A stretch of DNA of 63,575 nucleotides, counting the filler, from Acidimicrobiia bacterium (GTDB taxonomy: Bacteria; Actinomycetota; Acidimicrobiia; Spongiisociales; JAHEDJ01), in assembly GCA_029210695.1 (NCBI GenBank). It is 5 parts of 5 records of this genome, joined end to end, with 100 filler letters (N's around TTAATTAATTAA, not from the genome) between each part and the next. Parts side by side here need not be neighbours in the genome. Positions count along the whole stretch, not along the records: positions 14,190 to 28,076 come from JARGFH010000079.1; 4 more parts are not named here. One strand, given 5' to 3'. The notes under the pieces are model-generated. The model was not told the origin of the DNA. It saw only the letters and a program-made list of their open reading frames with translations, and did no database searches. Numbering within the stretch: the first letter of the stretch is position 1; each line of letters opens with the position of its first letter. A program made the translations under genes and the position numbers. This document shows, in pieces, positions 5,711 to 26,282 of this stretch.

Positions 5711-6687
5711 GCGTTATCGCCTTTTGCATCGTGACGGCCGTACGCCTCGACAATGTCCGCCACGATCTTGGCGCGCACGACATCGCGAGCGGTCAACTCG
5801 GTGAAGTTGATCCCGGGTATCCCGATCAGGATGCCGCGCACGAGCTTGAGCCCGGATCCTCTCTCAGTCGGCAAATCGATCTGTGTGACGTCCCCGGTGA
5901 TCACCATCTTCGAATTAAAACCCAACCGGGTGAGAAACATCTTCATTTGTTCCGGCGACGTGTTCTGCGCTTCATCGAGGATCACATATGCGTCGTTGAG
6001 CGTCCGGCCACGCATGTAGGCGAGCGGGGCAATTTCTATGATCCCGTGCTCCATCAGCCTGGCCGTTTCGTCCGCACCGAGCATGTCGTACAGCGCGTCG
6101 TAGAGCGGCCGCAAGTACGGGTCGATCTTCGCCGAGAGGTCGCCGGGCAGAAACCCGAGTCGCTCTCCGGCTTCGACGGCCGGACGGGTCAGCAGTATCC
6201 GACGAGACGCACCCGATCGCAACGCTTCGACTGCGGCGGCCATCGCCAGATAGGTCTTGCCGGTTCCGGCGGGTCCAATCCCGAACACAATTGTGTTGTC
6301 ACGAATGGCATCGATATAGCGCCGCTGCCCCATCGTCTTGGGACGGATGATCCGCCCACCTCCAACGGGTATCCCGGACGCAAATACACCGGATGGGCTC
6401 GGGACCTCGTCACGGACCATCTGGACGACGCGATCGATCTGGTCGCCATCGAGACGCTGATTCTCCTGGACCACGAGGAGGAGTTCGGCCAGCACCGTAT
6501 GGGCGCTGGCCGCGTCCAGTTCGGGGCCATTCAGCTGGAACTCGTTTCCGCGCGCGACAATATTGACCTTCGGAAAGGCCGTCTCGACGCGCCGCAAGAA
6601 CTCGTCCTGCTCTCCCAGGAGATCCAGCATCAAGTGATTGCTGGGTACGCGCAGCCGCAATTCGGAAGTGGATGCGCTAGATAGCAA
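5707..6687 (-). CDS. phoH: PhoH-family ATPase (YbeZ-type)
   Basis: GPAGTGKT, RPAVEAGERLGFLPG, YMRGRT, LDEAQN, TGDVTQIDLP. Confidence 0.96.
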   Translation of the reverse strand: MLSSASTSELRLRVPSNHLMLDLLGEQDEFLRRVETAFPKVNIVARGNEFQLNGPELDAASAHTVLAELLLVVQENQRLDGDQIDRVVQMVRDEVPSPSGVFASGIPVGGGRIIRPKTMGQRRYIDAIRDNTIVFGIGPAGTGKTYLAMAAAVEALRSGASRRILLTRPAVEAGERLGFLPGDLSAKIDPYLRPLYDALYDMLGADETARLMEHGIIEIAPLAYMRGRTLNDAYVILDEAQNTSPEQMKMFLTRLGFNSKMVITGDVTQIDLPTERGSGLKLVRGILIGIPGINFTELTARDVVRAKIVADIVEAYGRHDAKGDNA

Positions 6688-6802
6688 TGATTCCTCTACA
6701 GGAGGTATGCATAGGGGGAAACAGGAGTATAGAGAAACAACGGCTCATCTCGAAAGGGAAAACGCCGGGAAGCGATGTGGAGTTCCTCGTCGGGAATCAG
6801 GC

Positions 6803-7135
6803 TCAGCGGTCTGACCACCCGCCCATGAGATGAAAGTGCACGTGAAAAACGGTTTGACCTGCAGCCGGACCGACATTCGTAACGATCCGCCAACCTTCTT
6901 CGAGCCCCTCATCCGCGGCAATGGTCGCCGCCAGACCCATGAGCTCTGCCAGCCAGCCGGCGTCATCCGGCCCCAAGTCGGCGACGGAGTCCGCCACGTG
7001 CTCCTTCGGAATCAGAAGGACATGAGTGGGGGCATGGGGGTGGATATCGCGAAAGGCGAACAGCCGATCCGTCTCGGCAACCAGCGACGACGGAATCTCG
7101 CCGGCGACGATCTTGCAGAACACACAGTCGGTCAC
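6803..7135 (-). CDS. Histidine triad (HIT) nucleotide-binding protein
   Basis: DCVFCKIV start (GTG 7135), FRDIHP, QTVFHVHFH. Confidence 0.93.
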   Translation of the reverse strand: MTDCVFCKIVAGEIPSSLVAETDRLFAFRDIHPHAPTHVLLIPKEHVADSVADLGPDDAGWLAELMGLAATIAADEGLEEGWRIVTNVGPAAGQTVFHVHFHLMGGWSDR

Positions 7136-7184
7136 GCCTTCTCCCAACAGTCGGCCAATCGGCACGAACAGAGATCGGTGAGGA

Positions 7185-7664
7185 CTAGATCGTCCTGTCA
7201 ACCCCGAGCGTTGCTAGTACGTCCACGATGGACTCCTCCGACTGATGGAGCAACCCGGCGAGCAAGCGCAGGTCACTCGATCGGATCGTGAGGACCCGCC
7301 CGTTGAAGTCCTGTCGCATGATCTGAATCGCTCTCATGAACCGCTCGACGATATCGGCCGACGAGTCGTTTTCGAGGCGACTCAGGTCGATGCTCACGCC
7401 ACCGGTTGGAGTCCCGTGATCAGAGGCGTGGGATGATCGCTCATCAGGTGGAAGCAACTGGTCGACCGGAACGCCGTAGAACGAAGCAAGACGCTGCATT
7501 CTGGGCAATGACAAGCTTCTCTCTCCGCGTTCGTAAGCGCCGAGAACAGAAGCCTTGAACTCGAGTTCGGAGTTCGCTTCGACATCTTGCAGAGACAGGC
7601 CTTTTTGCTTGCGAATCGAACGCAAGCGCCGACCTACGGCCTCGTTATAGGACGATTCGATCAT
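7185..7664 (-). CDS. bldD: BldD-like XRE regulator with c-di-GMP-binding C-terminal domain
   Basis: HTH LRSIRKQKGLSLQDVE...GAYERGER...LASFYGVPV; C-terminal RQD-FNGRVLTI-RSSD matches RxD-X8-RxxD; GGAGG RBS. Confidence 0.82.
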   Translation of the reverse strand: MIESSYNEAVGRRLRSIRKQKGLSLQDVEANSELEFKASVLGAYERGERSLSLPRMQRLASFYGVPVDQLLPPDERSSHASDHGTPTGGVSIDLSRLENDSSADIVERFMRAIQIMRQDFNGRVLTIRSSDLRLLAGLLHQSEESIVDVLATLGVDRTI

Positions 7665-7718
7665 TCACGGCCCTCCTCCATAGTCAACAGTACCAGACAT
7701 GGACCCGCGCGGAAAGGG

Positions 7719-8402
7719 TCACTGAGGGTGAGATTTATTTTTCTTCCAGAGAACGTTATCACCGAGAAGGGCCCCAGCCCCGACAATCGCGGCGGTCTCG
7801 GTGCGCAGGACGCGTTCGGACAGTGCGATCCGGGCGGCGCGGTGCGGGATTTCCTCGTCGTGAAGCCCTGCCTCAGGACCGACCACCAGGGTGTAACGAG
7901 GCAACCCGGAGGGCACCGCATCCCTGCCATGGAGATCGCCGACCAACAGCGGTTCGTCGAGTTCATCGAGACCAACTGGCCCTGAGATGCTCATCAGGTG
8001 GGCGCCTCTCGATTGCTCGAGGGCACCGATTGCCCAGGCGCGGGCCTTCTGCTCGGCCGGCGGCGTTCCCTGCCCGAACCTGGTAGTGATCCAACGCAGT
8101 TCATCCACGCCCAGTTCGGCGAGTTTCTCAACGAGAAACCGGACTCGATCATTCGAACGGGGCGGTGCCACCGCCAGGCACAGCTCAGGAGATCTCCGGC
8201 CGACCAGGAGCTCATCTCCCCGAACGACGGTCGAACCGGTAAACGTTCCCTCGCCGGTGAGTCCGGCACCGTCGGTATAGGAGACAACGGCTCCACTCGG
8301 CCGGCGCAACACTCTGGTCAAATGACCCATCTGACGATCTTCGAGCCCAATCGCGGATGCCATCCAGGGCCCCGGTAGGTAGAGATGCGGGACGTGCGCC
8401 AT
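7719..8402 (-). CDS. rsmE: 16S rRNA m3U1498 methyltransferase RsmE
   Basis: HLTRVLR, EKLAELGV, EQSR, VGPEAGL, RVLRTETA; follows dnaJ. Confidence 0.93.
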   Translation of the reverse strand: MAHVPHLYLPGPWMASAIGLEDRQMGHLTRVLRRPSGAVVSYTDGAGLTGEGTFTGSTVVRGDELLVGRRSPELCLAVAPPRSNDRVRFLVEKLAELGVDELRWITTRFGQGTPPAEQKARAWAIGALEQSRGAHLMSISGPVGLDELDEPLLVGDLHGRDAVPSGLPRYTLVVGPEAGLHDEEIPHRAARIALSERVLRTETAAIVGAGALLGDNVLWKKNKSHPQ

Positions 8403-9488
8403 TCAGCGCACCTTGCGACGACGCCGCCCCGTCGCCACCGCTTCCCCCGTCAGTCCCGCATAGGTCCGCAACAAGGATTCCTGCTCGCCGTCGAGACGGG
8501 TCGGAACCACGAGGTCGACGTGCACGAGCAGGTCCCCTCTGCCGCGCCGACCGAGCCGCGGAACACCTTCGCCGGCCAGCCTGAACACAGAACCCGGTTG
8601 AGTTCCGGCCGGGATGGTCAGTTCCGTTTCTCCACCATCCAGAAGCGGCACCACTGCCTCAAATCCGAGCGCTGCCTGGGCAAGGCCGACCCGAAGTGGG
8701 TGATGGAGGTTGATCCCGTCTCGCTCGAATCGGGAATCCGGCCGCACCCGGATCTCGACGTAGAGATCACCGGCGGCACTCGCGCGGGCCCCTGCCTCGC
8801 CCTGACCGGTAATCCGGAGACGAGTGCCGTCGGATACCCCGGGTGGGATCTCGACGCTGGCGGACCGCTCGCTCTCCATGACCCCGCTGCCACGGCAATC
8901 CCGGCAGGGATCTGGAATGACTTCGCCCGTTCCCGAGCATCGGTCGCAAGGGGCGATCGACATCATCGAGCCAAACATCGTGCGCCGTGCTACACGCACG
9001 GAGCCAGCGCCGCCACAGTTAGCGCAGGTCTCCGGGTGGGTTCCGGGAGCCGCACCGTTGCCAGAGCAGGTGTCACACGTAACGGCGGCGCGAAACTCCA
9101 CCGAAGAGTTCGTTCCGAAGGCGGCGTCCGTCAGGTCTATCTCGACCGGCACGAGCACATCCCGTCCCCTTTGGCCCGCTTGTCGCCTGGTGCCTCCGAA
9201 CAGCCCGCTATCACCGAACACCGAACGGAGGAGATCGTCAAAAGTGCCGAGGTTCGAGAAGAGGTCACCGATGTCGACTCGATCACCACGGTCGTATCTC
9301 TGCCTCCGGTGTGGATCCGAGAGAACTTCATATGCCTCGGCAACTTCGCGGAATCTCGATTCAGCAGTCGGGTCGTCCGGATTGGCATCCGGATGCGAGG
9401 CGCGCGCCAATCGACGGAAGGCCTTCTTGATCTCTTCGGGGTCGGCATCGCGCGCAACGCCCAGGACTTCGTAGTAATCAGATGCCAT
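8403..9488 (-). CDS. dnaJ: Chaperone DnaJ (hrcA-linked, DnaJ2-type)
   Basis: J domain HPD, four CxxCxGxG repeats. Confidence 0.97.
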
Positions 9489-9490
9489 GG

Positions 9491-10498
9491 TCAGGATCCG
9501 AGGTTATCGGCGAGGTTGTCGCTGACCTCTTCGACGATTGAGATCGTGCGCCGGTAGTCCATTCGCATCGGTCCAAACACTCCGATTCGACCGGCGGCGA
9601 CTCCACCAACCTCGTAGGGAGTGGAGATCATGGCGAGATCCACGTCATCCTGCATGGGGAGCTCTTGTCCGATCTGAATGACCGTGCCGGGTGGTGCAGA
9701 AGCCATGATGCTCATGACCAGCGTTTCGCGCTCGAGCATGCCCAGCACGCGGTGCACCGTCGACAGGTCTTCCCAGAGCGAAGCCATCTGGCTGGTCCCT
9801 CCGACATACACGTCTCTAGCCATGTCCTCACAACGACGAACCGCGTCGAGCGCCGCTTCGACGACTTCTCGTGTCGCCTCAGATAGATCGCCCGGCATTT
9901 CATCCACCAGGGTGTCGATACCGGAAAGCAGCCGGCCGTTGAGCATCCCACCCAGAACTCGCTCGGCTCCGGGCACGATCGCATCGTCAACCGGGTTCGC
10001 CATCGTTAGAACTTCTTTGCTCACTCGTCCGGCATCACTCACGAGGATCAGCAGCACGGCGTGCCCTCCGAGTGGCACGAGGCTGACCCCGTGAACCTGT
10101 TCGCCGGACATACCGGGACCGGTGACGATGGCCGGATATTTGCTGAGATCCGCCACGAGCTCACTGGTGGACTTGAGGAGCCTGCCGAGCTCCTGATGTA
10201 CCGATGAGAAGAATCCACGGATCTTCTCCCGCGTCGATGCACGCAGCCGGCGCGGAGTCAGATGATCGACGTAGTAGCGGTAGGCACGCCCGGTCGGTAC
10301 ACGTCCGGCACTGGTATGTGGCTGGATCGCCATGCCTTCGCGGTCGAGCGCGGCCAGATCATTCCGAATCGTGGCAGGCGATACGTGCAGCGCTGAGTGC
10401 TCGAGAATGGCGCGCGAACTCACGGGCTCCCCTGAGGCTATGTATTCCTCAACGAGGACACGGAGCACTTCGGACTTGCGCTCGTCCAACACGACCAC
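9491..10498 (-). CDS. hrcA: Heat-inducible repressor HrcA (start may be GTG 10492)
   Basis: [34 protein letters not shown]. Confidence 0.96.
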
Positions 10499-10501
10499 AC
10501 G

Positions 10502-10528
10502 TTAGCAGTCACCAGACGCGAGTGCTAA
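10502..10528. promoter_or_regulatory. CIRCE operator (HrcA site) overlapping the hemW stop codon
   Basis: TTAGCAGTC-N9-GAGTGCTAA, 1 mismatch to the consensus TTAGCACTC-N9-GAGTGCTAA, immediately upstream of hrcA. Confidence 0.93.
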
Positions 10529-11656
10529 GACCGCCCTGGCGGCCTCGCTCCCCATCAGGGGTTTGTCCACAACGATCCGGGTGCCGTCCCACACCAGGAG
10601 TCCTGCCGCAAACAGACGCCTGCCCCATTCGTCTTCGGCGAGGGCCCCACCTGCGCAGCCGGCCTCCACCCCGGCAACACGCCGGAGGCCCAGGATCAAC
10701 CGCTCCTGTTCTCGCTCCCATGGAGTCTGAGCGTCTCTCCCCTGCTCCGGGCGCCGACCCTCCCTTACCGCCTTGAGATACGCATCCAGGCGGTGGATGT
10801 TCCGATAGCGCTGGGTTCCTCGATGACCATGTGCTCCCGGTCCGAAACCGAGATACTCGCCCTGTGCCCAGGTGAGAAGGTTGTACCTACATGCATGCCC
10901 GGGTGTTGCGAAATTGCTGACTTCATACCGCACGTACCCCGCATCCAGGAGTCTTGCTCGCGCCATCTCGTACTTGTCTGCCTGGTCGTCCTCGTCCGGA
11001 GCCGGAGCGCCCGCCGTGATGGAGCGGCTCAGCGCAGTGCCCCGTTCGACCGTGAGCGCGTAGAGCGAGAGATGGTCGGGTTCCAGGGCGAGCGCTTCTT
11101 CCACGGAGGCACGCCACGACTCTGCAGATTCTCCCGGGGTGCCGTACATGAGGTCGAGGTTTATCGATCGGAATCCAGCGCGGCGGGCAATCTGGACTCC
11201 CGCTGCGATGTCCGGCGGTTGATGGATCCTGCCCAGGCTCGTCAGTACGCCCGGGTCGAACGATTGCGCTCCGAAGGACACCCGGTTGAATCCTCCCCGG
11301 ACGAGTGATTCGGCCATCGCCCAGGACCAATCTTCGGGGTTCGCCTCGATACCGACCTCTACGTCAGCGTTGAACCCGAAGCGGGATCGAATCGCCGCCA
11401 GAACCCCGGTCAGTGCCTCGGGTGGGAGCCGGCTGGGTGTGCCGCCACCGACTGCGACGGAATCCAGAGGCTCCCAGTCCGGTTCCGCAGCTATTTCCGC
11501 CTGCACCGCGGTCACATACTGCGGTTGCGAGTCGTCGCGCCCCTCAACAACATTGAAATCGCAGTAGGGGCAGATGCGCGCACAAAAAGGTACATGGACG
11601 TAGGCTCCAACCCAGCCTGCAGCCGCTTCAGCGAGTTCAACGCTGTCCGGCCGCAT
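10502..11656 (-). CDS. hemW: Radical SAM heme chaperone HemW
   Basis: YVHVPFCARICPYCDFN, GGGTPS, YEVSNFA; ATG 11656 overlaps the lepA TGA. Confidence 0.93.
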   Translation of the reverse strand: MRPDSVELAEAAAGWVGAYVHVPFCARICPYCDFNVVEGRDDSQPQYVTAVQAEIAAEPDWEPLDSVAVGGGTPSRLPPEALTGVLAAIRSRFGFNADVEVGIEANPEDWSWAMAESLVRGGFNRVSFGAQSFDPGVLTSLGRIHQPPDIAAGVQIARRAGFRSINLDLMYGTPGESAESWRASVEEALALEPDHLSLYALTVERGTALSRSITAGAPAPDEDDQADKYEMARARLLDAGYVRYEVSNFATPGHACRYNLLTWAQGEYLGFGPGAHGHRGTQRYRNIHRLDAYLKAVREGRRPEQGRDAQTPWEREQERLILGLRRVAGVEAGCAGGALAEDEWGRRLFAAGLLVWDGTRIVVDKPLMGSEAARAVLALASGDC

Positions 11657-13464
11657 CACGTCTCTGTGTCGACCCGCAGCGCAGAGATGAACGCATCTTG
11701 CGGAACCTCGACGGAGCCGACCATCTTCATACGTTTCTTGCCCTCTTTCTGCCGCTCGAGGAGCTTGCGCTTTCGGCTCACATCGCCCCCGTAGCATTTG
11801 GCGATGACGTCCTTCCGGCGTGCCTTGACGGTCTCACGAGCAATCACCCTGGTTCCGATCGCAGCCTGGATGGGGACGTCGAAGAGCTGGCGGGGAATGA
11901 GCTGACGCAAACGCTCAACCATCTTCTTGCCGTAGAGATAGGCCTTCTCGTTGTGGGTGATCGTCGAGAAGGCGTCTACCGGCTGACCGTTGAGCAGGAT
12001 GTCGACCTTGACCAGGTCGGATGTCCGGTACTCCCCTGGCTCGTAATCGAGCGACGCATATCCCCTGGTCCGGGATTTGAGGTGGTCGAAGAAATCGAAC
12101 ACGACCTCCGCCAGCGGCAGGTTGTAGATCAGTTCCACTCGTTCAGGAGAAAGGTATTGCATGTGATCCATCGACCCGCGTCGAGTCTGCACCAGTTCCA
12201 TGATCGTGCCCGTGTACTCGGAAGGGGCGATGATCATCGCCCGCACATATGGCTCTTCGAGTAGCTCGATCTTTCCCCGATCCGGCAGATCCTGAGGGGA
12301 TCGGATCTCGAAACTCGACCCGTCGGTGGTCGTCACCCGGTAGGCAACCGAAGGGGCGGTGGCGACGAGGTCGAGGTTGTATTCGCGTTCGAGTCGCTCA
12401 CGGACGATCTCCATGTGTAGCAACCCGAGGAAACCACACCGGAAGCCAAAACCGAGCGCCCTGGACGACTCGGGCTCGAATACAAGGGAGGCATCGTTCA
12501 TGCGCAACTTCTCGAGGGCCTCGCGCAGGCGCTCCAGGTCGTCACCATCCGAAGGAAACAGTCCCGAATACACCATGGGCCGCGGCTCGGCATAACCGGG
12601 CAGCGGCCGCACTGCGGCTTGCCCGGGGTGGGTGATCGTGTCGCCGACCCGGATCCGATCGATCTCCTTCACTCCCGTGATCAGATAACCCACCTCGCCA
12701 GGACCCAGCCTGGCAACCGGCACAGCCAGCGGAGTCAGGACTCCCACCTCTGCAGCCGTGTGACGTTCAGCGGTCGCGGAAAATCTCACCGTATCCCCGG
12801 CGGCCAGAACCCCGTCGACCACCCGTACGTAGCAGACCACGCCGCGGTATGAGTCGTAGTACGAGTCGAAAACCAGAGCCCGCAGCTCTTCGCCTTCACT
12901 CGTTGGAGGTGGGATGTCGCGGACGATCCGGTCGAGCAACTCCTCGATGCCATCGCCGGTCTTGGCGGAGACCCGGATCACGCCGTCCGCCTCAACACCG
13001 AGGATCGAGGCGATTTCGGCTGCCACCTTGTCGGGATCGGCAGCCGGAAGATCGATCTTGTTGATGACCGGGATGATCTCCAGCCCGGCTTCAATGGCGA
13101 GGTAGGCGTTGGCCAGCGTCTGTGCTTCGACGCCCTGGGCTGCGTCGACCAGCAGGACGGCCCCTTCGCAGGCGGCGAGAGAGCGAGATACTTCGTAGCT
13201 GAAGTCGACGTGACCGGGTGTGTCGATCAGATTGAGTACGACTGGCGAACCGTCGGCGGCGTGGTAATCCAGGCGAACGGCCTGAGCCTTGATCGTGATG
13301 CCACGTTCGCGCTCCAGGTCCATGCTGTCGAGAACCTGCGCTCGCATATTCCGTTCGGAAATGGAACCAGTGCGCTCGAGCATGCGGTCGGCCAGCGTCG
13401 ACTTCCCGTGGTCGATGTGAGCGATGATGCTGAAGTTCCGGACAGAATAGGGAGAGAGACTCAC
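11656..13464 (-). CDS. lepA: Elongation factor 4 LepA
   Basis: [41 protein letters not shown]. Confidence 0.98.
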
Positions 13465-13541
13465 ACGATTACCTGTGCAGCGAGTGTCACGTTGCCGATG
13501 GGCAGTGACCCATAGGCTCTAGGAGGCGTGGACTCAAGAGT

Positions 13542-13569
13542 CTATGGCCTATGGCCTATGGCCTATGGC
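13542..13569. repeat. Heptamer tandem repeat (CTATGGC)x4
   Basis: Four perfect copies between rpsT and lepA. Confidence 0.9.
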
Positions 13570-13595
13570 CACGGCGAGGTGAGTCAAGTTCGCGA

Positions 13596-13868
13596 TCACT
13601 TGGTCGCGAGCAGTTCCGCCACATCCTTGACGAGCTTCGCTTTCCGGCGGGCGGCCGTGTTCTTGTGGAGAACGCCTTTGGTGACAGCCATGTCGATGCG
13701 CCTCTGGGCCAGTCGGGAAAGCTCCTCAGCCTTTTCTGCTTCGCCTGCTTCGGCAGCCTCGAGGGTGTTCTTGACCCGGGTCTTCAACTCGGAGCTAAGG
13801 CCCTTGTTGCGGACACGGCGCACTTCGTTCTGACGATTGCGCTTCATCTGTGACTTGATATTGGCCAT
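13596..13868 (-). CDS. rpsT: 30S ribosomal protein S20
   Basis: MANIKSQMKRNRQNE...KGVLHKNTAARRKAKL. Confidence 0.97.
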   Translation of the reverse strand: MANIKSQMKRNRQNEVRRVRNKGLSSELKTRVKNTLEAAEAGEAEKAEELSRLAQRRIDMAVTKGVLHKNTAARRKAKLVKDVAELLATK

Positions 13869-14089
13869 ACGAAATCGAAACCTCTGATGGAAACGGGGCG
13901 CGCGGCAAACTCACGCGGGCACGGAATCGTAGCAGCGGATGGGCCAAAGGAGCAAGGTCGATCGGTTGGCCCCGCGCGATTCCGGGCCTACCGTCGGTTC
14001 GCCGTTCGCCGCGGCACCTAATGGGGGTCTACGGGGCTTCTGCGGTTGTGGGAGTCTTGTGGCTGAGCCTGCTGGCCGGTGAGCACTGC

Positions 14090-14189
14090 NNNNNNNNNNN
14101 NNNNNNNNNNNNNNNNNNNNNNNNNNNNNNNNNTTAATTAATTAANNNNNNNNNNNNNNNNNNNNNNNNNNNNNNNNNNNNNNNNNNNN
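14090..14189. other. Artificial contig linker
   Basis: N44-TTAATTAATTAA-N44, which places stops in all six frames. Confidence 0.98.
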
Positions 14190-14270
14190 ATCTGGGAACA
14201 GATCCAGAATGCCGGATCGAGGGCGATGGTGAATGCTCGATATCGCTCTGGGCGGTGGGTGATCTGTGCG
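14190..14270 (-). repeat. Inverted 'head' copy of the module-delimiting repeat
   Basis: Matches 55865-55944 (22/26 and 33/37 identity in the two end blocks). Reverse complement CGCACAGATCAC...GCGATATCGAGCA...CCG^GCA matches the repeat family. Confidence 0.8.
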
Positions 14271-14367
14271 GTCTACGTCGCTCCTCCAAGTGGGGCAGTG
14301 CTGGCAAGTCGCCGGTTTCTTGGTGGCCCGGTTGCGAATCAGTGACGTGCGGCGTCTTTAGTGTGAG

Positions 14368-14883
14368 ATGGGTCGGACAGGTTTGCCATCAGCGGAGGTC
14401 ATGTCGTTGAGAGGTCTTGGCGAGGAGGAGACAGCGGTCGTCACGGAAGTGTATGAGCCGCTGCGCCGGTTTGCAGGTGTTGTCGGTCCGTTGGAGGTGG
14501 ATCCGGATGACCTTGTCCAGGAGGCCTTTCTGCGCGTGCTACGCCATGGCGCGCTGTCAGGTTTGGAGAACCCAGGTGCGTATTTGAGGCGGGTGGTGGT
14601 GAATCTGGCAGCGGATCATCGTCGCCGGTTAGGTCGCCGGCGACGAGCGTTGGCGAGGTTGGCAGCATCGTCTCCGTCTGGTGTTGACCCGGTATTCCCG
14701 TCGGATGTTGCTGATCTGCTGCACCTGGAGCCGAGGGCCAGGGCGGTGCTCTTCATGCATGACGTGGAGGGATATTCGTATCAGGAAATCGCAAACCTGT
14801 TGGGCCTGAGCGACAGCGCCGCCCGGATGGTGGCGTCGCGAGCCCGCCGACGGTTGAGGGCTGCGTTCGCCGAGGAGGTGTGA
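14368..14883 (+). CDS. ECF sigma-70 factor (module 1)
   Basis: Region 2 DDLVQEAFLRV...AYLRRVVVN; region 4 EGYSYQEIANLLG...SRARRRL. Confidence 0.92.
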   Translation: MGRTGLPSAEVMSLRGLGEEETAVVTEVYEPLRRFAGVVGPLEVDPDDLVQEAFLRVLRHGALSGLENPGAYLRRVVVNLAADHRRRLGRRRRALARLAASSPSGVDPVFPSDVADLLHLEPRARAVLFMHDVEGYSYQEIANLLGLSDSAARMVASRARRRLRAAFAEEV

Positions 14884-14884
14884 G

Positions 14885-15829
14885 ATGGAACAGGATCGTT
14901 CGGCATTCGAGTTCTTGGCAACACGCGGCACCCGCGTCGGACCTGACCTGATGGTCGAACGGCTGCAACTAGCGCTGGAGACCGAGCCCGACACCGAGCC
15001 GGGTCAGTTCCGCCGCCGGTCTTTCACGAGGAGCTGGTGGGTTCCCGTGGGAGCAGCGGCGGTGGCCGTGACGGTGGTGTTGGTTAGCTTGCTGATTCCT
15101 CCTGCTGCGCCATCAGCGGCGGCGGTGTTGGAGCAAGCGGAAGCCGCGGCTGTCCAATCGGCTACACCCGTTCCGGGGATGATGCTGCACCAGGTGGTTG
15201 ATTTCGAACGGAACCTGGAACCTACTTGTGAGGGAGGAACGGTGAGGATCGGTGGCGGTGAGGGTGGAGAGCCCCGCTACGGCACCGAGTCCTGGTTCGA
15301 CCCGGCGGGTAACCGGACCCGCGGCCATACCATCTACCCGGATGGGACATCCTCTGATTGGATCGACCTGGGCGGCGTCGAGATCTGGCAGCGAGGCGCC
15401 GAGTCGCCGTTCCGGTCAGTGGGGTGTTCAATGAGGGGGGGACCCACTGAACCACCCGACCCGGCCAATCTGGCACTGCTAGATGCCCTCAACGCTGTAT
15501 CTGATCCGGAAGCGGATCTGGTCGAGCGGGCAGCTGCTTTCGAGACGCTGCGGGGTTTCGAAGCGGTCGAGCTGCTTGCGGGCGAGCACGTAGATGCCAC
15601 CGGCCGTCGCGTGCTGGTACTGGAGGTGTCCCTAGAGGATGTGCTGGGCGAGCGCCAGGTAGCCGACCTCAAGTTCGACCCGGATACCTATCAACTCCTC
15701 GAAACAGCCAACTCCATCGATGGCCCGATGGTAAGGGGCACCGTGCGGATCACTGTTCTCGTCGAGGAATGGATCGAGGTGGATGATGAACTCTTCGATG
15801 TCACCGGATACACCAAGCAGACGGGATAG
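14885..15829 (+). CDS. Putative single-pass anti-sigma/sensor protein
   Basis: Directly after the sigma gene; short cytoplasmic N-terminus, one TM (WVPVGAAAVAVTVVLVSLLI), SAAAVLEQA then an acidic ectodomain. Confidence 0.7.
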   Translation: MEQDRSAFEFLATRGTRVGPDLMVERLQLALETEPDTEPGQFRRRSFTRSWWVPVGAAAVAVTVVLVSLLIPPAAPSAAAVLEQAEAAAVQSATPVPGMMLHQVVDFERNLEPTCEGGTVRIGGGEGGEPRYGTESWFDPAGNRTRGHTIYPDGTSSDWIDLGGVEIWQRGAESPFRSVGCSMRGGPTEPPDPANLALLDALNAVSDPEADLVERAAAFETLRGFEAVELLAGEHVDATGRRVLVLEVSLEDVLGERQVADLKFDPDTYQLLETANSIDGPMVRGTVRITVLVEEWIEVDDELFDVTGYTKQTG

Positions 15830-17099
15830 TCGCCGACCGGCCATAGTTGGCCGCGCCAGCTCGCCAGTGGTCGGACTCATCGCAGCGTCCGCATTGGTAC
15901 TTGCGGCCTGTGGCAACGGCGCCGAGACTGCGACCACTGCCCCGTACCAATCGTCAACTACACAATCGACCGCGGCAACTACATCATCGGTGGGGACTTC
16001 CTCCACAGCCACAATGATGCCCGAGACGCCGACCACAACAACGACTCGTGCTGAGGATCCGTGGCGACGGATCGCTTCTTCTCCACTCGAGGGCCGGTAT
16101 GCGCACGGATCAGCGTGGACCGGCGATCAGCTGGTGATCTGGGGTGGAATCTATCGGTCGGGTGACACTCTGGTCGATCTCACCGACGGAGCCGCCTACA
16201 ACCCGGCCAGCGACACGTGGCGGTCTCTGTCTCCGGCACCTTCGGATCTGGCGGGGCCAGCGGATGCGGTCTGGACCGGCCAAGAGATGATCGTACGGAC
16301 CGATCGTGTCCCCGACGGTCCAGCCGTAATGGCCGCCTATCAGCCAGCTGCGGACACCTGGCGGGTCATCGAAGGCGGGCCCGGCGCCGTACGGGAGGGC
16401 TATACGCTCCTCTGGACAGGAACCGACCTGATCATCTGGGGCGGCAACTCCGGCGACATGCTCGCCGGTCCCACCCTCGGCGCCGCCTACGACCCAACAA
16501 CCGACAGGTGGCGTGCAATTCGGGAATCGCCCATCGCCCCGCGAACCGGACACCAGACGGTCTGGACGGGGGAAGAGATGATCATCTGGGGAGGCCGGGG
16601 AAGCTGCGCCGGGAAAGACTCCACCTGTGTCGAGGACCTCACCGACGGTGCCGCCTACAACCCCGCCACCGACACCTGGCGGACTCTTCCGACGTCGGGC
16701 GACCTCCAAAGCTCAGCAGTGGCGGTATGGGATGGCGACCAGATCCTCTTCTGGAGTCAAGACGAGTGCACCCGGCGGTGCCTGGTCGGAGAGGCGTACG
16801 ATCCGCAGACAGACTTCTGGCTGCAGCTTCCCGACCCTCCAGCGCCAGCCACATCCGATCTGTACCGTGCGTTATGGATAGGTGACCGGGCACTCCTCTG
16901 GAATCAGGACGGCACCGCCCTCACCTACCAACCCAACACGGCAACCTGGCAAACCCTCCCACCGTACCCAAGTGCCGACCGCCGATTCTTCTTAACCCTC
17001 GGATGGACCGGGCAGGCCGTCATCGTATGGGGAGGATGGAACGGTCACGCCTTCACCCCGCCAAGCAACGACGGAGCCGCCCTAGACCCAACACCATGA
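15798..17099 (+). CDS. Kelch-like beta-propeller lipoprotein
   Basis: Lipobox VLAAC, Thr-rich linker, repeats WTGxxxIIWGG...GAAYNPxTDTWR. Start uncertain (15783 or 15798). Confidence 0.85.
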   Translation: MSPDTPSRRDSRRPAIVGRASSPVVGLIAASALVLAACGNGAETATTAPYQSSTTQSTAATTSSVGTSSTATMMPETPTTTTTRAEDPWRRIASSPLEGRYAHGSAWTGDQLVIWGGIYRSGDTLVDLTDGAAYNPASDTWRSLSPAPSDLAGPADAVWTGQEMIVRTDRVPDGPAVMAAYQPAADTWRVIEGGPGAVREGYTLLWTGTDLIIWGGNSGDMLAGPTLGAAYDPTTDRWRAIRESPIAPRTGHQTVWTGEEMIIWGGRGSCAGKDSTCVEDLTDGAAYNPATDTWRTLPTSGDLQSSAVAVWDGDQILFWSQDECTRRCLVGEAYDPQTDFWLQLPDPPAPATSDLYRALWIGDRALLWNQDGTALTYQPNTATWQTLPPYPSADRRFFLTLGWTGQAVIVWGGWNGHAFTPPSNDGAALDPTP

Positions 17100-17147
17100 C
17101 CGAACAGCAACGTCCAGGAAGCGTCGACGAGTCAGCAGATCCCCATG

Positions 17148-17268
17148 CGCTCCGATCACCCGCTATGCGCCATATCAAACACTTCGCGGACCGCACCCGG
17201 ACGGCACCACTGCGCTCGGGTATCTGAGTACCGTCCGACCACGGTGCGTGGAGTGTTGTCGGCGGTGG
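17148..17268 (+). repeat. Module-delimiting repeat, copy 1, with long imperfect hairpin
   Basis: CGCTCCGATCACC-CGCTATGCGCCATATC...GGACG^GCAC; stems 17178-17188/17247-17257 and 17198-17204/17231-17237. Confidence 0.75.
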
Positions 17269-17331
17269 GCCGCTCTTCGCATTGTTTGAGATTCTTGTAC
17301 ACCGTCATGCCGTGTGATGCGTGATAGTGGT

Positions 17332-17886
17332 GTGGAAACGGTACGAAGATCAGCAAGGGTGGTTGTGAGCGAAAACATCCCAGCGATGCCCCGGATCGAG
17401 GGGTTTGATGCTTTCTACGCCAGTGAGTACCCGCGGGCAGTGGCGGTGGCGCACGCTCTATTGGGCGGTGGCCTTGTCGCTGAGGACGTCGTACAGGAAA
17501 CGTTTTTGGCGACCTATCGACAGTGGGATCGGGTCTCGAGGTATGAGAACCCGCGCGCTTGGGTGCGGCGGGTGCTGGTGAACCGGGCGACGTCTTCGCT
17601 GCGGCGGCGGTCGGCCGAGTGGCGGGCCGTCATGCGTCTTTCTGGGCGGGTCGACCCGGGGTGGGTGAGCGCAATCGAGCCGGAGTCCAGTGAGGTGTGG
17701 AAGGCGGTGTCGCAGTTACCGAAGCGGCAGGCGCAGTCGGTTGCTCTCTATTACGTCGATCAGTTGAGCCTTGACGAGATCGGCGAGGTGCTGGGATGTA
17801 GCGCCGGGACGGTCAAGACCCACTTGAGCCGGGCCAGAACCAGGCTGGGTCGGAAGCTGAATGAGTTCAACGAGGTGACGGGATGA
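17332..17886 (+). CDS. ECF sigma-70 factor, SigE-like (module 2)
   Basis: AEDVVQETFLATYRQW, WVRRVLVN, LPKRQ, GTVKTHLSRAR. Start uncertain. Confidence 0.93.
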   Translation: METVRRSARVVVSENIPAMPRIEGFDAFYASEYPRAVAVAHALLGGGLVAEDVVQETFLATYRQWDRVSRYENPRAWVRRVLVNRATSSLRRRSAEWRAVMRLSGRVDPGWVSAIEPESSEVWKAVSQLPKRQAQSVALYYVDQLSLDEIGEVLGCSAGTVKTHLSRARTRLGRKLNEFNEVTG

Positions 17887-19346
17887 ATCGACTTGAGGAC
17901 CGGCTCCGACGTACGTCAAGGGAGCTACGTGAGGCGACAGCTCATCTCACCGCCCCCCCGCTAGAGGGTGCCCGAACCCGTGCGCGACGCCGGTTGGTGT
18001 TGGGGTTCGTTGGGGGGGCGGCGGTAGTTCTCTTTCTGATTGGCGGTGTTGCGCTGCTTCAACCCAACACCCCCGACCGGCCGATTGCCAACACCACGGT
18101 GGCACCCTCGACCACGGTGGCACCGTCGACCACGGTGGCGGAGGTGGACTGGACTGGGGGTTGGGTGGTGCTGTCGAGCGACCCCCGGGTGGTGCAAGCT
18201 CCCGACGACCCGGCACCTCTGTCGCCTCTCCCATCGGGCACCGAGATCCCCCTCCTGCCTATCACGTCTCTGAGGAGCCAGGACGTCGAAGCGATAGGCG
18301 TCTACGAGGGCGACCAACCGATCGTCGCGGTGGGTGTACTTGGTACCGGCGATCGGTTGTTCGTGGTCCCACCGGGGTGGACGGGGGCTCCCACCGATGT
18401 TGGCACCTGTTATCTGATCGTCGGCGACTCCGCCGCAGGCTCCGGTGTTCTCTGTGACGAGAACTGGGATGAGCCTTTGCTGGACCCAGATCCACCCGGG
18501 TCGCTCCGTTTCATCGGACCGGTACCGTCGGGGACGAGCACGTTTGAGGCCACCGATTGTCCCCTCACGACGAACTGTTCACATGAGATCGGCGAGTACT
18601 GGCAGCGCACCCGGGGCGGGTTCGTATTCATGGAAGCCCCGTTCAACTCCCCGGTCATCCAATGGACCGCACGAGCAGCCGACGGGACCGTCCTCCAACA
18701 AGCCGAGCGTGGCCCTTTCCAGTCGCTCGCCCAATCACCCAGCCAGACCGAAGCCGACGCCCAACGTGACGGGGTTGTCCCCGAGTTGGCCAACCTCGCT
18801 TTCACCCTCAGGGTCGACCCTTTGGTCGAATGGAACACCGAGGACGGTACATGGATGATCGCCCGACCGAGCGACGACCTCATCAACTCCACCATGGCTG
18901 ACGGATGCGGATTCGGTAACCTCGAGGGGACCTACCCGACCGAGGTGATCTGCACCTCCGAATACGGTGAGATCCTCCTCGTGGACGAAACTGGGAAGAT
19001 CGCCCGCGCGTATCCGATGCCGAGTGCAGTTCCAAGCTGGATCTATGTGACCTCGAGCACCGTGTATGCCGGACGGATCGGAGACGGGGGCCTACCCGAT
19101 TCGACCCTGATCCGTATCAGCCGCGACACACTGGAAGCCACCGTAGTCCTGATACCGGCGTACTTTGATGGCGGACAGGACTGGCCACCAGGCTGGCACA
19201 TCGCCACCCCAGAACAAAGCGCCGGATATGAAGGTCTGGTGGGGTTTGCCCCCGACATGACAGGCACCACGGTCACCTCCTGGAAAGGTGACGTTGTGGT
19301 CGACATCGAAGGCATCGACCAACTGATCACCCAACTCACCGAATAA
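17883..19346 (+). CDS. Putative single-pass anti-sigma/sensor protein
   Basis: ATGA overlap with the sigma stop; MNRLEDRLRRT start, one TM, (TTVAPS) linker, large ectodomain. Confidence 0.72.
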   Translation: MNRLEDRLRRTSRELREATAHLTAPPLEGARTRARRRLVLGFVGGAAVVLFLIGGVALLQPNTPDRPIANTTVAPSTTVAPSTTVAEVDWTGGWVVLSSDPRVVQAPDDPAPLSPLPSGTEIPLLPITSLRSQDVEAIGVYEGDQPIVAVGVLGTGDRLFVVPPGWTGAPTDVGTCYLIVGDSAAGSGVLCDENWDEPLLDPDPPGSLRFIGPVPSGTSTFEATDCPLTTNCSHEIGEYWQRTRGGFVFMEAPFNSPVIQWTARAADGTVLQQAERGPFQSLAQSPSQTEADAQRDGVVPELANLAFTLRVDPLVEWNTEDGTWMIARPSDDLINSTMADGCGFGNLEGTYPTEVICTSEYGEILLVDETGKIARAYPMPSAVPSWIYVTSSTVYAGRIGDGGLPDSTLIRISRDTLEATVVLIPAYFDGGQDWPPGWHIATPEQSAGYEGLVGFAPDMTGTTVTSWKGDVVVDIEGIDQLITQLTE

Positions 19347-19496
19347 GGACAGCCGCGACACCGGACGAGAACCCAAAGTCCGTCACCGGCAAACGACCAA
19401 GAGAACCCGAAAAAGGTGTCAAAGGAAACCACTCCCGACGCGTCTTACTAACAGTGGAAGCCACCGTCACCAGCGGGGAGCCGCGATGACACAGCT

Positions 19497-19606
19497 CGCA
19501 CCCGATCACCAAATATGCGCCATAACGCACCTCACAACCACCCGTCCCCGAACGGCACTTCGAGGAGCGCGCTCCGCTTGAACGGTCGCTACTCAGTGTG
19601 GTGGTC
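19497..19606 (+). repeat. Module-delimiting repeat, copy 2
   Basis: CGCACCCGATCACCAAATATGCGCCATAACG...CACCCGTCCCCGAACG^GCAC; GATCACCA (19504-11) can pair with TGGTGGTC (19599-606). Confidence 0.8.
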
Positions 19607-19660
19607 TGCTTTCGAGTCGGGTGTCATCTCCGAAGGTTCCGCGCTCGGGGGTTGCATGAC

Positions 19661-20710
19661 CTACGGACGGCGATTCAGGTGTCGGTCGCGGAGTTGCCTG
19701 CTGCCTTCCGCATAGGGTGTGATATCCGAAACTTGGGTGAGGGAGACGCGATCCGCTGGGATCCCATGAGACTGCAACCCGATAAGGGCGCTGTCCAAGT
19801 CGATTACCGCCACCCAATCGTCGCCCAAGGTGAAGGTTTCGGCCGGATGTGAAATGTCGTCGATGAAAAACCCTGAGCTGGCCCATTTAGGGACGGGTCG
19901 TCCGTCGATTTCGATGCGGCGCTTCATCGCCCATTGATGGAATTCCTCCGGTGCCAGATCCTCAGGCCGAGGAGCCTGGCGGTACCACAGCTCGCGGGTC
20001 AGCTCTCGGCGGATGTGATCAGGTTCACGGTCGGGTCGGTCGGGTCGTTTCCATATCGTGTTGACCCGCATTTGGGGTTCGTCGGGCGGATCCCCATACC
20101 TGAGTTCGAAGTGGGTCAACATCGACCCTGACTGCCCATGCCCTCCCAAAGACCGCTGACCGGCCCAGCCCGCCAGTCCATACACCGATCCCGGGGCCGT
20201 CTGCACCATCCGGATAAGTTGCTCGGTTTCGAGGCGCTCAGCTCGGGTCGGGCTGACCGTGCGGACAAGATCAATCCACAATCCGCGCCGGCCCAACCGA
20301 AGCAGCGCCGTAGCCAGGAAGAACAGCCACACCAACAGCACCCACACAACCGTCACCAGCAGCCACGACCAGTCGAGAGTCACCCGCAACACGACCCCCA
20401 ACATCACTCCCACGACGGTCGCACCCACCCAGAACACCGGCACCGGCTCCGCGGTCCGATGCTGTATCAGCACCCGAATCACCCGGGTCGGCCAGCTCCA
20501 CCACAACGGTCCACGATCGGCCCTGGCCCAGAGCGAGGCCGAGGATCCTGCGGGCCATTCATGCCCATTTGGGCAGCGCAGCGTCGATGACGGTGCCTGA
20601 CCATCGAAGAGCCAACCTCTCAGTCGCGCCCACCGGTTCGGCGTCGCGACGACCTGCCCCTCCAATCCACAGGCCCGACATGGGCCACCACCAACCGTTG
20701 TAAGCCACAT
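19661..20710 (-). CDS. Hypothetical membrane protein (module 3)
   Basis: Long ORF with CxxC and CPNGH pairs and two TM helices; fills the space between two repeats. Start uncertain. Confidence 0.6.
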   Translation of the reverse strand: MWLTTVGGGPCRACGLEGQVVATPNRWARLRGWLFDGQAPSSTLRCPNGHEWPAGSSASLWARADRGPLWWSWPTRVIRVLIQHRTAEPVPVFWVGATVVGVMLGVVLRVTLDWSWLLVTVVWVLLVWLFFLATALLRLGRRGLWIDLVRTVSPTRAERLETEQLIRMVQTAPGSVYGLAGWAGQRSLGGHGQSGSMLTHFELRYGDPPDEPQMRVNTIWKRPDRPDREPDHIRRELTRELWYRQAPRPEDLAPEEFHQWAMKRRIEIDGRPVPKWASSGFFIDDISHPAETFTLGDDWVAVIDLDSALIGLQSHGIPADRVSLTQVSDITPYAEGSRQLRDRHLNRRP

Positions 20711-20750
20711 GGCACGGCCGCTTGATCGCATCCAAGCAGTATGCCAGCCA

Positions 20751-20846
20751 CGCACAGATCACTCTGATATCGCGCCATAACGAGCACATCGCCCACCCGT
20801 CCTGGATCGGCACGTCGGCGGGCGGCGGCGGAACCACCCAGAGTGG
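20751..20846 (+). repeat. Module-delimiting repeat, copy 3
   Basis: CGCACAGATCACTCTGATATCGCGCCATAACGAGCAC...CACCCGTCCTGGATCG^GCAC; TCACTCTG (20759-66) pairs with CAGAGTGG (20839-46). Confidence 0.82.
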
Positions 20847-20936
20847 CGCAACACCGGATCACGGGGATGGAACCCGGACTGGTGCTGCGGGCATACCCGT
20901 GATGTGAGGTACGGTGCCCGTCTGTTGGGAGGTTCG

Positions 20937-21059
20937 GTGGTCGACGATGTGCGTGGTGATGCGCGGGATTGGCCGCTGGTCGTTGGCGGTGATCACGCGG
21001 CGTTCGAGCGCGTCTTCGACCGTCATGCCGATCTGATCTATCGGTTTGCGCGGCGCCGC
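20937..21059 (+). pseudogene. 5' fragment of a transposon-split ECF sigma factor (module 4)
   Basis: GGGAGG RBS, GTG 20937: MVDDVRGDARDWPLVVGGDHAAFERVFDRHADLIYRFARRR; joins in frame to 24938. Confidence 0.88.
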
Positions 21060-21112
21060 CTCCCGTGTGATTGAGTGGTGATTATGTCGCACCCCTCCGG
21101 TAGGCTGTGGGC

Positions 21113-22311
21113 GTGGCTAAGGGACGACCGATCGGAAGTGGTGCGAAGGATCTACCTTCATGCGTCCAACATCCAGGGAGCCGTGTGTAAAGAACGGCAC
21201 ATACGGAACAGGCAACGACAAGCGCCAGATGTTCCGTTGCATCCCCACAGATGGACCGGTCCACAAGTTCGCCGGAGTGATACCCCGGCTTGTGAATGAG
21301 AGCCATTCGTGCGACCACTGCGAGAACACAGTGGCAAGTCACGAAGGGCCCCGCGTTGCTCATCGCTACGAGTTTCCCGTGGCCCAAGCTGCTGCGGCGC
21401 TGGTCATGATCGGCCAGGGCGTTTCCTATACCGAGACTGCCGACCGGATGCGTGCTCGGAACTTCCGAGACAGGTTTGATGGCGGAGCGCAGCTGGTGTG
21501 CAACTGGGCTGAGATTCTGGGTCCAGTTGTTGTGAGTGAGTACACGGAGACTGAATGGCCTGAGACAGTCGTCTTGGACGCAACGTGGTTCATGGTGACC
21601 AACAAGCGCACCGGAGACACCACAAGGGCGTTCAGTGTTCTCGGCGCCCACGGGTACCCCGAGGGACACAAGCGGGGGCGGTGTTGGATGCTGCGCGCAA
21701 CGCCAACTCGAACGGCACGGGACTGGGAGAACGTGCTGCGGAGCTTGCCGGGTGAGCCCAAGATGGTCATCTGTGACGAAGACGCTGCCATCATCGCTGC
21801 AGTATCGAAAGTCTGGCCTGATGCGTTCATCAAACGGTGTGAACACCACCTGCGCGAGAGCGTCATCAAGAAAATGGCCCCCTATGGTCTCACCGCTTAC
21901 GGAAGCCCTGAGATGGAGCTGCTCAATGACGGCTTTCACAGCTCCAAGAGTTGGCGTGCATTCAAGAAGAAGGTGAGCGGCGCCGGCGTGGAGGACTGGA
22001 TCGTGCGACGCGAAGAGGTGATTGGGGAACAAGTGCGACTGCGCGGGCGTCTCCCCCAACACCACTCGACAGGAGCGCTCGATGAGGACTTGGCGAGGGT
22101 GCGAGAGTTCATGGAGCCTCGAGCGTTCTGCTATCGCAATGCCGAGAGGACGAACCGGCTGTTAGAGCTGGTGCGACTACGGCTCAGCCGATGTGACGAT
22201 CCGTTGATCTACGCCAGAGCCATTCGCAAGCACCTCGACTCCAACGGAGGCAAGCTCGGCAAGCAAGGAACCATCAGAGACAAAGCGGGCCATCCGAGTT
22301 TGCGGGCGTAG
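21113..22311 (+). pseudogene. Mutator-like DDE transposase, probably frameshifted near 21187 (main ORF 21160-22311)
   Basis: VVLDATW (D1), VICDEDAAIIAAVSKVWP...RCEHH (D2 + CxxH), STGALDE. The upstream frame GTG21113 MAKGRP...CVQHPGSRV* supplies the first half of a CH-CH zinc finger. Confidence 0.75.
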
Positions 22312-22346
22312 CGCCGTCAACCAGTCTCATCCCGCACTGGGTGTCT

Positions 22347-23510: not shown

Positions 23511-23571
23511 GCGGCCTTTCGGTGGCGGATGAAGATTCGCTGGTAGGCCGACTGGATCACTCGCCCGTTCT

Positions 23572-26199: not shown

Positions 26200-26282
26200 C
26201 CGAACCAGCGGACCGGCAAGCGCTCTGAGTCCCCCGCGTACCCGGGGGGCTCGGCGCATGGTCACCGCGAGACGCCCCGGGT

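Follow-up and report, generated by a model that had tools for sequence, protein, structure and literature searches.

Two short, similar sequences at the edges of gene arrays in the genome of an Acidimicrobiia bacterium raise the question of what kind of site they are and what they delimit. The stretch analysed (63,575 nt of assembly GCA_029210695.1, linkers included; hereafter the window) consists of five contigs joined by N44-TTAATTAATTAA-N44 linkers, at 1-14089, 14190-28076 (JARGFH010000079.1), 28177-41764, 41865-55312 and 55413-63575; their lengths decrease from first to last, as they would in a size-sorted assembly, and the fifth is probably cut by the end of the window. The two sequences, here called heads, are H1 (14190-14270, contig 2) and H2 (55865-55944, contig 5), both given on the plus strand. 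A preliminary description of the window had treated them as one conserved site, inverted relative to a direct repeat that follows it, and had proposed that this site could be an attI-like entry site, a shufflon-like inversion anchor or the fixed end of an element that accretes cargo. On our analyses the head would be the backbone-side junction site of the cargo array of an integrative mobilizable element (IME), possibly its origin of transfer (oriT), a reading to which, taken as a whole, we give about an even chance.

The head as the last conserved sequence of a mobF-type island

Homology between the two heads, claimed in the preliminary description, holds up: their local alignment scores 77, compared with a mean of 16.2 and a maximum of 27 in 1000 shuffles, and blastn aligns them at 79% identity over 81 nt. 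Counted by eye, the end blocks match at 22 of 26 and 33 of 37 positions, as had been stated, and a head profile finds H1 at E 3.7e-17 and H2 at E 2.5e-17. Both heads open with the mini-hairpin ATCTG-GGA(A/T)-CAGAT and close with a 12-mer, which in H1 is GTGATCTGTGCG at 14259-14270. Written on the other strand, the 12-mer is CGCACAGATCAC, and the earlier observation that it is shared with a repeat copy at 20751 was also correct: it occurs exactly three times in the window, at 14259-14270 and 55933-55944 on the minus strand and at 20751-20762 on the plus strand, while with one mismatch 4 window matches are found and 0.54 are expected.

A two-block pattern fitting both heads and the copy at 20751 was used to scan genome contigs and retrieved eight loci. 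Three of these are true relatives, all from metagenome-assembled Actinomycetota: L001 (20 kb out of a 693-kb contig), L006 (4.5 kb, an Acidimicrobiaceae contig) and L007 (10.3 kb). The other five (L002-L005 and L008) are chance or coding matches in unrelated bacteria and were kept as negative controls. The best DNA identities are 75-83%, the genome of the window itself being absent from the contigs scanned. The 12-mer end is exact in 5 of the 6 head-type copies found in the window and its relatives, and with TGCCGG and ATCGCTC it makes up the conserved blocks of the head. The mini-hairpin, 5 bp long in the window heads, has only 3 bp in their L001 homologue, as read from the sequence, and is absent from the head-type copies of L006 and L007 and from a second copy in L001; it is therefore not a conserved feature.

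What precedes the head is a relaxase gene. Contig 5 begins with the 3' end of a MobF/TrwC-type relaxase-helicase gene on the plus strand (55413-55836, 140 codons, open at the contig start), and by blastp the product of this open reading frame (ORF; 55414-55836) shares 80% identity, across 115 aa, with residues 811-925 encoded by L001 ORF 10107-12884. By itself the contig-5 fragment has no Pfam match; the 925-aa L001 protein carries a TrwC domain (E 9.2e-77) and an AAA_30 helicase domain, and its alignment with the relaxase structures of TraI and TrwC (E 1e-29 to 1e-27) takes in the conserved histidine stretch. In both contig 5 and L001 the head starts 29 nt past the relaxase stop codon, and in contig 5 the conserved spacer (55837-55864) and H2 form the final backbone-homologous stretch ahead of variable DNA. 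By blastn, window positions 55489-55947 match L001 10454-9995 at 82.2% over 461 nt, and this homology stops 3 nt beyond the 12-mer, at the right end of the head. The head is thus the last conserved backbone sequence of a mobF-type island and, judged from these alignments, marks the nucleotide at which the conserved backbone yields to cargo that differs between elements. The only proteins common to the three related loci and window contigs 2 and 5 are the relaxase and, beyond the head, two distant paralogues: one extracytoplasmic function (ECF) sigma factor (36% identity) and an IS110-family insertion sequence (IS) transposase (64%).

At the other head the same region is cut short. H1 begins at the first base of contig 2 and matches L001 10078-9997 at 82.9% over 82 nt by blastn, while in contig 5 and L001 the conserved stretch extends about 30 nt further left of the head. 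Since contig 2 starts inside this spacer-plus-head stretch, H1 is truncated on the left, and a relaxase gene ahead of it would be expected by analogy with contig 5. The simplest reading of the assembly break at the start of contig 2 is that the relaxase region is present in several copies.

The whole island is visible in L001 and has the layout of an IME. A 71-nt direct repeat, 92% identical, lies at 1824-1894, where it overlaps the 3' part of a tRNA-Phe gene, and at 14856-14926, and the order of the element is tRNA-Phe attL, cargo with four co-oriented direct-type sites, head (10059-9998), mobF, a 118-aa ORF, xis (an HTH_17 excisionase-type ORF), integrase and attR. About 8 kb of cargo extends from the head to the tRNA gene. 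The integrase, of the tyrosine type with Phage_integrase and Phage_int_M domains, lies 3.6 kb from the head, with mobF in between. It is divided into two ORFs by a frameshift right after a G5 run (14100-14150), which is either gene decay or an assembly error and bears on whether the island is still mobile. None of the scanned ORFs inside this 13-kb element is a type IV secretion or mating-pore gene. We hold the anatomy of the element with good confidence. Of the outcomes envisaged in the preliminary description, a fixed end of a cargo-accreting element fits the relaxase gene 29 nt before the head, the L001 anatomy and the stop of homology at the head; its suggestion that a relaxase or integrase might precede the head is likewise borne out by the MobF 3' end in contig 5 and L001, and by xis and integrase in L001. 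The window itself contains no tRNA-Phe att fragment, and ARAGORN finds no tRNA in it.

The relaxase backbone is common. Among 8000 candidate proteins scored from public metagenomes, 1606 match the relaxase at E <= 1e-30, and the best 120 of these are all at least 65% identical to it; the name MobF family relaxase is attached to several of them, which come from Acidimicrobiia or Actinomycetota. The nearest plasmid relaxases, those of Corynebacterium MobF plasmids, are about 31% identical, and head DNA has no match in the plasmid collection searched.

A co-oriented family of sites dividing the cargo

The repeat that follows the heads is present in six copies in the window, all on the plus strand. 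Three of these give strong nhmmer matches between or ahead of cargo modules of contig 2: 17145-17227 (E 8.9e-15) at the junction of modules 1 and 2, 19497-19573 (E 7.5e-14) at the junction of modules 2 and 3, and 20751-20829 (E 4.7e-15) about 110 nt upstream of the third ECF sigma gene. A weaker copy lies at 26287-26342 (E 4.9e-5 with an enlarged profile, E 0.09 with the first profile). The remaining two, 27424-27484 in contig 2 (E 1.2e-10, profile positions 3-60 only) and 63438-63502 in contig 5, downstream of kdpE (E 3.8e-8), are cut by IS110-family elements, the former losing its right quarter. Units are about 60-85 nt long and share the blocks GATCAC, AACG, CGGCAC and GCGG. Their ends are sharp: beyond about 6 nt to the left of GATC and about 22 nt to the right of CGGCA, information is at background level. 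A weak inverted match between the two ends near GATC was counted by eye (about 7-8 of 11-12 positions). Two repeat pairs are 72% and 76% identical, and from the alignments we estimate 70-80% in general; the sites are thus much better conserved than the genes between them, the flanking sigma proteins being 29-36% identical.

The preliminary description had stated that the reverse complements of the heads fit this repeat. In gapped pairwise alignments the reverse complement indeed outscores the forward strand in all ten head/direct pairs, but the fit is weaker than was claimed, since only two pairs stand far above shuffles (H1-20750, z 6.6; H2-63439, z 6.5) and the other eight have z 0.0 to 3.1. 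A profile built from five direct copies recovers those five (E 6e-17 to 9e-12) and not the heads (E 13-16). The copy at 20751 is intermediate toward the head type: it matches the reverse complement of the head end at 12 of 12 positions and the head profile on the minus strand at E 0.041. We read the heads, from these comparisons, as inverted relatives of the direct repeat family, collinear with it in reverse complement and distantly related to it.

With the enlarged direct-type profile, the head-type profile and the pattern scan, the family comprises 21 copies: two head-type and six direct-type in the window, two and four in L001 (second head-type copy at 4822-4762, E 3.9e-5), one and four in L007, and one and one in L006. 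One L007 copy (3600-3677), cut by an IS, was missed by the direct-type profile, found by the pattern scan and placed by profile alignment; it also gives a weak head-profile match (E 0.0076). Direct-type copies are co-oriented in every locus with several of them (6 of 6 in the window, 4 of 4 in both L001 and L007), and head and direct copies are mutually inverted in contigs 2 and 5, L001 and L007. No family copy reached E <= 1 in the about 41 kb made up by window contigs 1, 3 and 4, in the about 6.9 kb of L001 beyond its att repeats or in the five unrelated control loci. The head therefore belongs, in inverted orientation, to a family of junction sites that divide the cargo, and this family is island-bound and co-oriented. 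That the head starts both arrays is true of the window, yet contig 5 has a single direct copy, 7.5 kb from the head, and head-type copies also lie inside the arrays of L001 and L007. Nor does the proposed arrangement of one inverted primary site and several direct sites make a rule, as there are two heads in L001, the head of L007 lies between direct copies and L006 shows the opposite orientation. Heads without repeats, which would have told against a link between the two, were not seen: direct-type copies lie near the heads in all three related loci, which were selected by the pattern. In L007, the right flank of the direct-type copy at 7349-7424 holds ATCTGGGA, which begins as the mini-hairpin of the window heads does. 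This may be a coincidence, or the flanks of the sites may be related.

IS110-family elements target the site family repeatedly, at a specific position and in a specific orientation. In contig 2, the copy at 27424 is followed by an IS110/IS1111-family end on the minus strand (27485-28076), consisting of about 180 nt of non-coding end and a C-terminal transposase part (Transposase_20 domain, E 1.6e-17, minus strand) that runs off the contig. In contig 5 the copy at 63438 is followed by the first 73 nt of a second, related end (63503-63575, minus strand), of which 42 nt are 90% identical to 27481-27522. Together with an element at about 3677 in L007, which is 74.6% identical in DNA and 64% in protein to that of contig 2, three site copies are thus abutted by IS110-family ends at the same position of the site, and the transposase genes visible in two of the three insertions lie on the strand opposite to the repeat. 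Comparison of the IS non-coding ends with the site flanks for seek/bridge-RNA complementarity gave 7-8-nt matches only, the window IS copies being incomplete. The head itself, which might have turned out to be part of an IS end, is not one. L007 also carries three IS110-family transposase genes on one strand within 5.3 kb (1366-6683), and at one junction site, on our reading of the sequence, a second IS110-family element appears to abut the first, as if one target had been hit twice.

The cargo of contig 2 (14368-27352) consists, by Pfam, of three ECF sigma modules, a Kelch protein and unknown ORFs. Module 1 comprises an ECF sigma gene, a putative anti-sigma gene and the Kelch gene, module 2 an ECF sigma gene and a 487-aa ORF, and module 3 a 364-aa ORF on the minus strand; H1 sits 98 nt upstream of the first sigma gene. 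An ECF sigma gene followed by a large unknown, putatively anti-sigma ORF recurs in four cargo modules (window 14368-19346 and 20938-26199; L001 5094-7108). The ECF sigma proteins, three in the window and one in L001, share 29-36% identity, and there is no match between the putative anti-sigma proteins. Coding repeats of about 150 nt in the Kelch gene show up as direct-repeat families at 16176-16687. The third sigma gene is split, with its start near 20938 and the rest from about 24938, by a 3.9-kb IS256/Mutator-family transposon (21059-24929) with 30-nt inverted ends that are 97% complementary, bordered by the 8-bp target duplication GGCGCCGC and carrying passenger genes for an endonuclease of the GmrSD type that has an HNH domain, and for an adenine methyltransferase of the EcoRI type. 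In contig 5, the DNA between H2 and the repeat (55945-63437) holds unknown ORF(s), trkH, two trkA genes, kdpD and kdpE by Pfam and may be either cargo or chromosome; from H2 to the trkH stop (55945-56700, about 750 nt) there are only ORFs without a Pfam match, such as 55940-56566.

Pfam scanning covered 71 window ORFs, of which 19 are in contig 2, 14 in contig 5 and 38 in contigs 1, 3 and 4, and none of the 71 is a recombinase gene. Contigs 1, 3 and 4 carry housekeeping genes, among them era, lepA, hrcA, a BldD-like regulator, selA/selB, a Mrp-type ATPase and sugar-transport genes, with neither integrase nor relaxase among their 38 scanned ORFs. The start of contig 3 (28217-28675) encodes the C-terminal part of another Mutator/IS256-family transposase, so that several contig ends (both ends of contig 2 and the starts of contigs 3 and 5) fall in repeated mobile DNA.

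What the junction sites may do

The site family is best explained as conserved double-stranded DNA sites at IME cargo junctions in Acidimicrobiia-like Actinomycetota. The head would then be the site of action of an element-encoded protein, most likely the MobF relaxase, and could be the oriT/nic region from which the cargo would be transferred first. Direct-type sites would be secondary sites at which modules may be gained, lost or exchanged, either through relaxase strand transfer, of the kind TrwC performs between oriT copies, or through plain recombination between conserved sites. A relaxase role is favoured by the position of the head, by its invariant end at the backbone/cargo break and by the recombination of TrwC at minimal oriT copies; we put this predicted role forward tentatively, as somewhat short of an even chance.

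Several observations weigh against this reading. The related loci were retrieved with a pattern derived from the sites, so that the co-occurrence of site types is partly built in. Three of the six head-type copies, those of L006, L007 and the second of L001, have no relaxase gene next to them, and for H1 such a gene is expected rather than seen, as contig 2 begins within the conserved stretch. A single oriT per element is the norm, yet here related sites are scattered through the cargo. Being inverted with respect to the head, the direct copies would have their nic-like end on the other strand and so could not bring to its close a transfer begun at the head. A more classical oriT candidate exists in L001, namely a gap of about 230 nt, richer in A+T, between xis and the orf118-mobF operon, in which a repeat finder saw no inverted repeat. 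With plasmid relaxases only about 31% identical and the head unmatched in plasmids, there is no known oriT for comparison. The array reading has difficulties of its own: in L006 head and direct copy stand in the opposite relation to that of the other loci, and no module was found in two arrays, so that module mobility stays conjectural. Finally, the heads show an invariant 12-mer end and a small inner stem but no consistent fold as DNA: the six have z -0.10, -2.76, -1.83, -0.37, +0.35 and -0.65, and RNAalifold gives an unfavourable covariation of +1.11, with 3 of 19 pairs compensated.

An alternative that we regard as possible, though doubtful, is that the sites are passive short repeats, a non-autonomous family resembling miniature inverted-repeat transposable elements (MITEs) or repetitive extragenic palindromic (REP) units, which accumulates in tolerant island DNA and serves mainly as an IS110 landing pad, the copy after the relaxase gene having no role. 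IS110/IS1111 elements are described as choosing repeated targets, such as REP units and attC ends, by means of a guide RNA (PMC11187229, PMC1525189, PMC11208160), and three copies here are hit by an IS at one position. The sharp ends of the sites, the weak inverted match between them, the copies away from relaxase genes and the sequence subtypes that, on our reading of the alignment, are apparently common to different genomes would all suit such a family. Random insertion, however, would produce the co-orientation of the direct copies (6 of 6, 4 of 4 and 4 of 4) with a chance of about 1 in 2000. A passive family is also hard to reconcile with zero copies in the approximately 48 kb of non-island DNA examined and with a backbone/cargo break that coincides with the end of a site in contig 5 and L001, and the sites lack a REP-type hairpin.

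Going further than the favoured reading, the island could be a new kind of gene-capture platform, in which the head and the co-oriented 80-bp sites would be substrates for cargo insertion, excision and swapping. We think this rather unlikely. The work would fall not to an integron integrase but to an HUH relaxase or to some island enzyme as yet unrecognized, and a dedicated IS110-family element would parasitize the sites, as IS1111-attC elements do those of integrons.

An integron-like cassette system, in which the head would serve as attI and the direct copies would be attC-like sites acted on by the island integrase or another recombinase, is improbable. It would account for co-oriented sites between mostly co-oriented small gene modules, and L001 and the end of L007 do carry tyrosine recombinase genes. 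The integrase of L001, however, lies 3.6 kb away, behind mobF, and its att is the 3' end of tRNA-Phe, which the sites do not resemble (z <= 2.4); none of the 71 scanned window ORFs is a recombinase. There is no consistent hairpin: of 9 direct copies and 6 heads folded as DNA, only one of each has z below -2. The pair RYYYAAC/GTTRRRY, which we take to be the integron core-site pair, is missing from the sites in a check made by eye only. Simple site-specific recombination between head and direct sites, which lie in opposite orientations, would invert DNA, not insert it. The attI-like proposal of the preliminary description is not supported, on the same points, namely no integron-type integrase beside the head, no consistent hairpin and no core-site pair by eye. 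In favour of a cassette system there is still the dedicated IS110-family parasite of the sites, which parallels the IS1111-attC group (PMC11187229).

Equally improbable, in our judgement, is a cis-regulatory role, in which the sites would be promoters, operators or insulators of each module, for example ECF-sigma-dependent promoters. A family copy lies 87-272 nt upstream of all four ECF sigma genes (14368, 17314, about 20938 and L001 5094), and the direct copies are on the strand of most modules. The motif AAC-N16-CGTC, which presumably resembles ECF-type promoters, was found by eye in 3 of the 15 direct copies (19497, 20751 and 63438, at about 19523-19546, 20779-20802 and 63468-63491), but the other 12 are without it. 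Orientation to the sigma gene varies as well, H1 being co-oriented with it and the second L001 head opposite, and the copies at 19497, 27424 and 63438 face a convergent gene 3' end or an IS. A consensus promoter scan found no promoter-like site at any copy, and of 11 terminator-like sites, where 7.8 are expected, only one overlaps a copy. A regulatory role would moreover leave unexplained both the backbone break point and the copy after the relaxase stop codon.

A shufflon-like switch that inverts DNA between the head and direct copies, as the preliminary description had also suggested, can be set aside as highly improbable: although in 4 of the 5 contigs or loci that bear sites (contigs 2 and 5, L001 and L007) the head faces the opposite way from the direct copies, there is no invertase gene, no coding region would be rearranged, the sites are non-coding and a 2-nt indel shifts every frame in them, the head-direct distances of 3-13 kb span whole operons, and neither a sign of inversion nor an alternative arrangement was found among the loci.

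Other accounts of the repeat were considered and rejected. A coding repeat was suggested by a short minus-strand peptide shared between copies, but in six-frame translation the 2-nt indel between copy subtypes shifts every frame. A hairpin element (attC, REP, or a single-strand origin or promoter) is ruled out, there being no consistent RNA or DNA fold. Copies of the integrase att site were looked for by comparing 12 sites with the tRNA-Phe attL, attR and tRNA-Asp on both strands, and all gave z <= 2.4. Leftovers of tandem sigma-module duplication are ruled out by sigmas that are only 29-36% identical, anti-sigmas without a match and sites that are far more alike. Rfam at gathering scores finds no family in the window; at E <= 0.1 in L001, L006 and L007 it gives two L001 tRNAs and one YrlA match of 28.1 bits, far under the gathering score of 69.

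Significance and comparison with known systems

If the junction sites are active, they would offer a second route, besides integrons, for the modular assembly of cargo, one linked to the processing of DNA in conjugation, in an uncultured lineage of actinobacteria that has received little study. As the relaxase backbone is common in metagenomes (at least 120 cluster representatives with 65% identity or more), the idea can be tested by comparison alone. On a more modest reading, the head marks the border between backbone and cargo of these islands, and accounts for the assembly breaks at the island border, and the sites are a target that IS110-family (bridge/seek-RNA) recombinases of Actinomycetota use naturally and repeatedly.

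Set beside MITEs, which have terminal inverted repeats and a target-site duplication and occur in either orientation, the sites show by eye a weak inverted match at their ends, and their orientation is non-random. REP units and bacterial interspersed mosaic elements (BIMEs) resemble the sites as repeated intergenic sequences that are safe landing places for IS110-family elements (PMC1525189). REP units, however, are palindromic, 20-40 nt long and spread chromosome-wide, whereas the present sites are two to three times longer, non-palindromic, clustered in islands within the DNA analysed and co-oriented, with no copy in 41 kb of housekeeping contigs. The likeness to integrons lies in short co-oriented sites between small gene modules, with a different site at the fixed end, and extends to the insertion sequences: in the IS1111-attC group (PMC11187229), as with the IS110-family elements here, an IS with a DEDD transposase enters the sites at one position and in one orientation. 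The systems differ in that no integron integrase stands beside the head, the hairpin palindrome and core-site pair are lacking, the modules here often hold 2-3 genes and the fixed end is a relaxase gene.

Further parallels come from conjugative DNA processing. The nic region of MOBF systems is described as an inverted repeat followed by a short 3' conserved single-stranded stretch with the nic site (PMC4176350), and TrwC recombines and integrates DNA at oriT copies down to 17 bp (PMC3264647). The head is likewise non-coding and conserved, has an invariant end and adjoins a TrwC-family relaxase gene in contig 5 and L001, and the joining by TrwC at a second minimal oriT gives a precedent that would allow several related sites per element (PMC3264647). 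The differences, as far as a comparison of sequences goes, are a site length of 60-85 bp rather than 17 bp, the inverted placement of the secondary copies, the lack of a consistent inverted repeat and the 3 head-type copies, out of 6, that have no relaxase gene beside them.

The element as a whole conforms to IMEs, which are characterized by an integrase, an excisionase and a relaxase with its oriT, and by insertion in tRNA genes (PMC5704250). L001 has a tyrosine integrase, an HTH_17 gene, a MobF relaxase and a 71-nt att duplication at tRNA-Phe, with no mating-pore gene in its 13 kb, and the window shows the relaxase 3' end and the same downstream site, integrase and att being seen in L001 only. 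A limited search of open-access text found no description of an IME with cargo divided by such a site family, and it is here that these islands differ from known IMEs: their cargo is divided by a co-oriented family of conserved repeats, an inverted copy of which closes the backbone.

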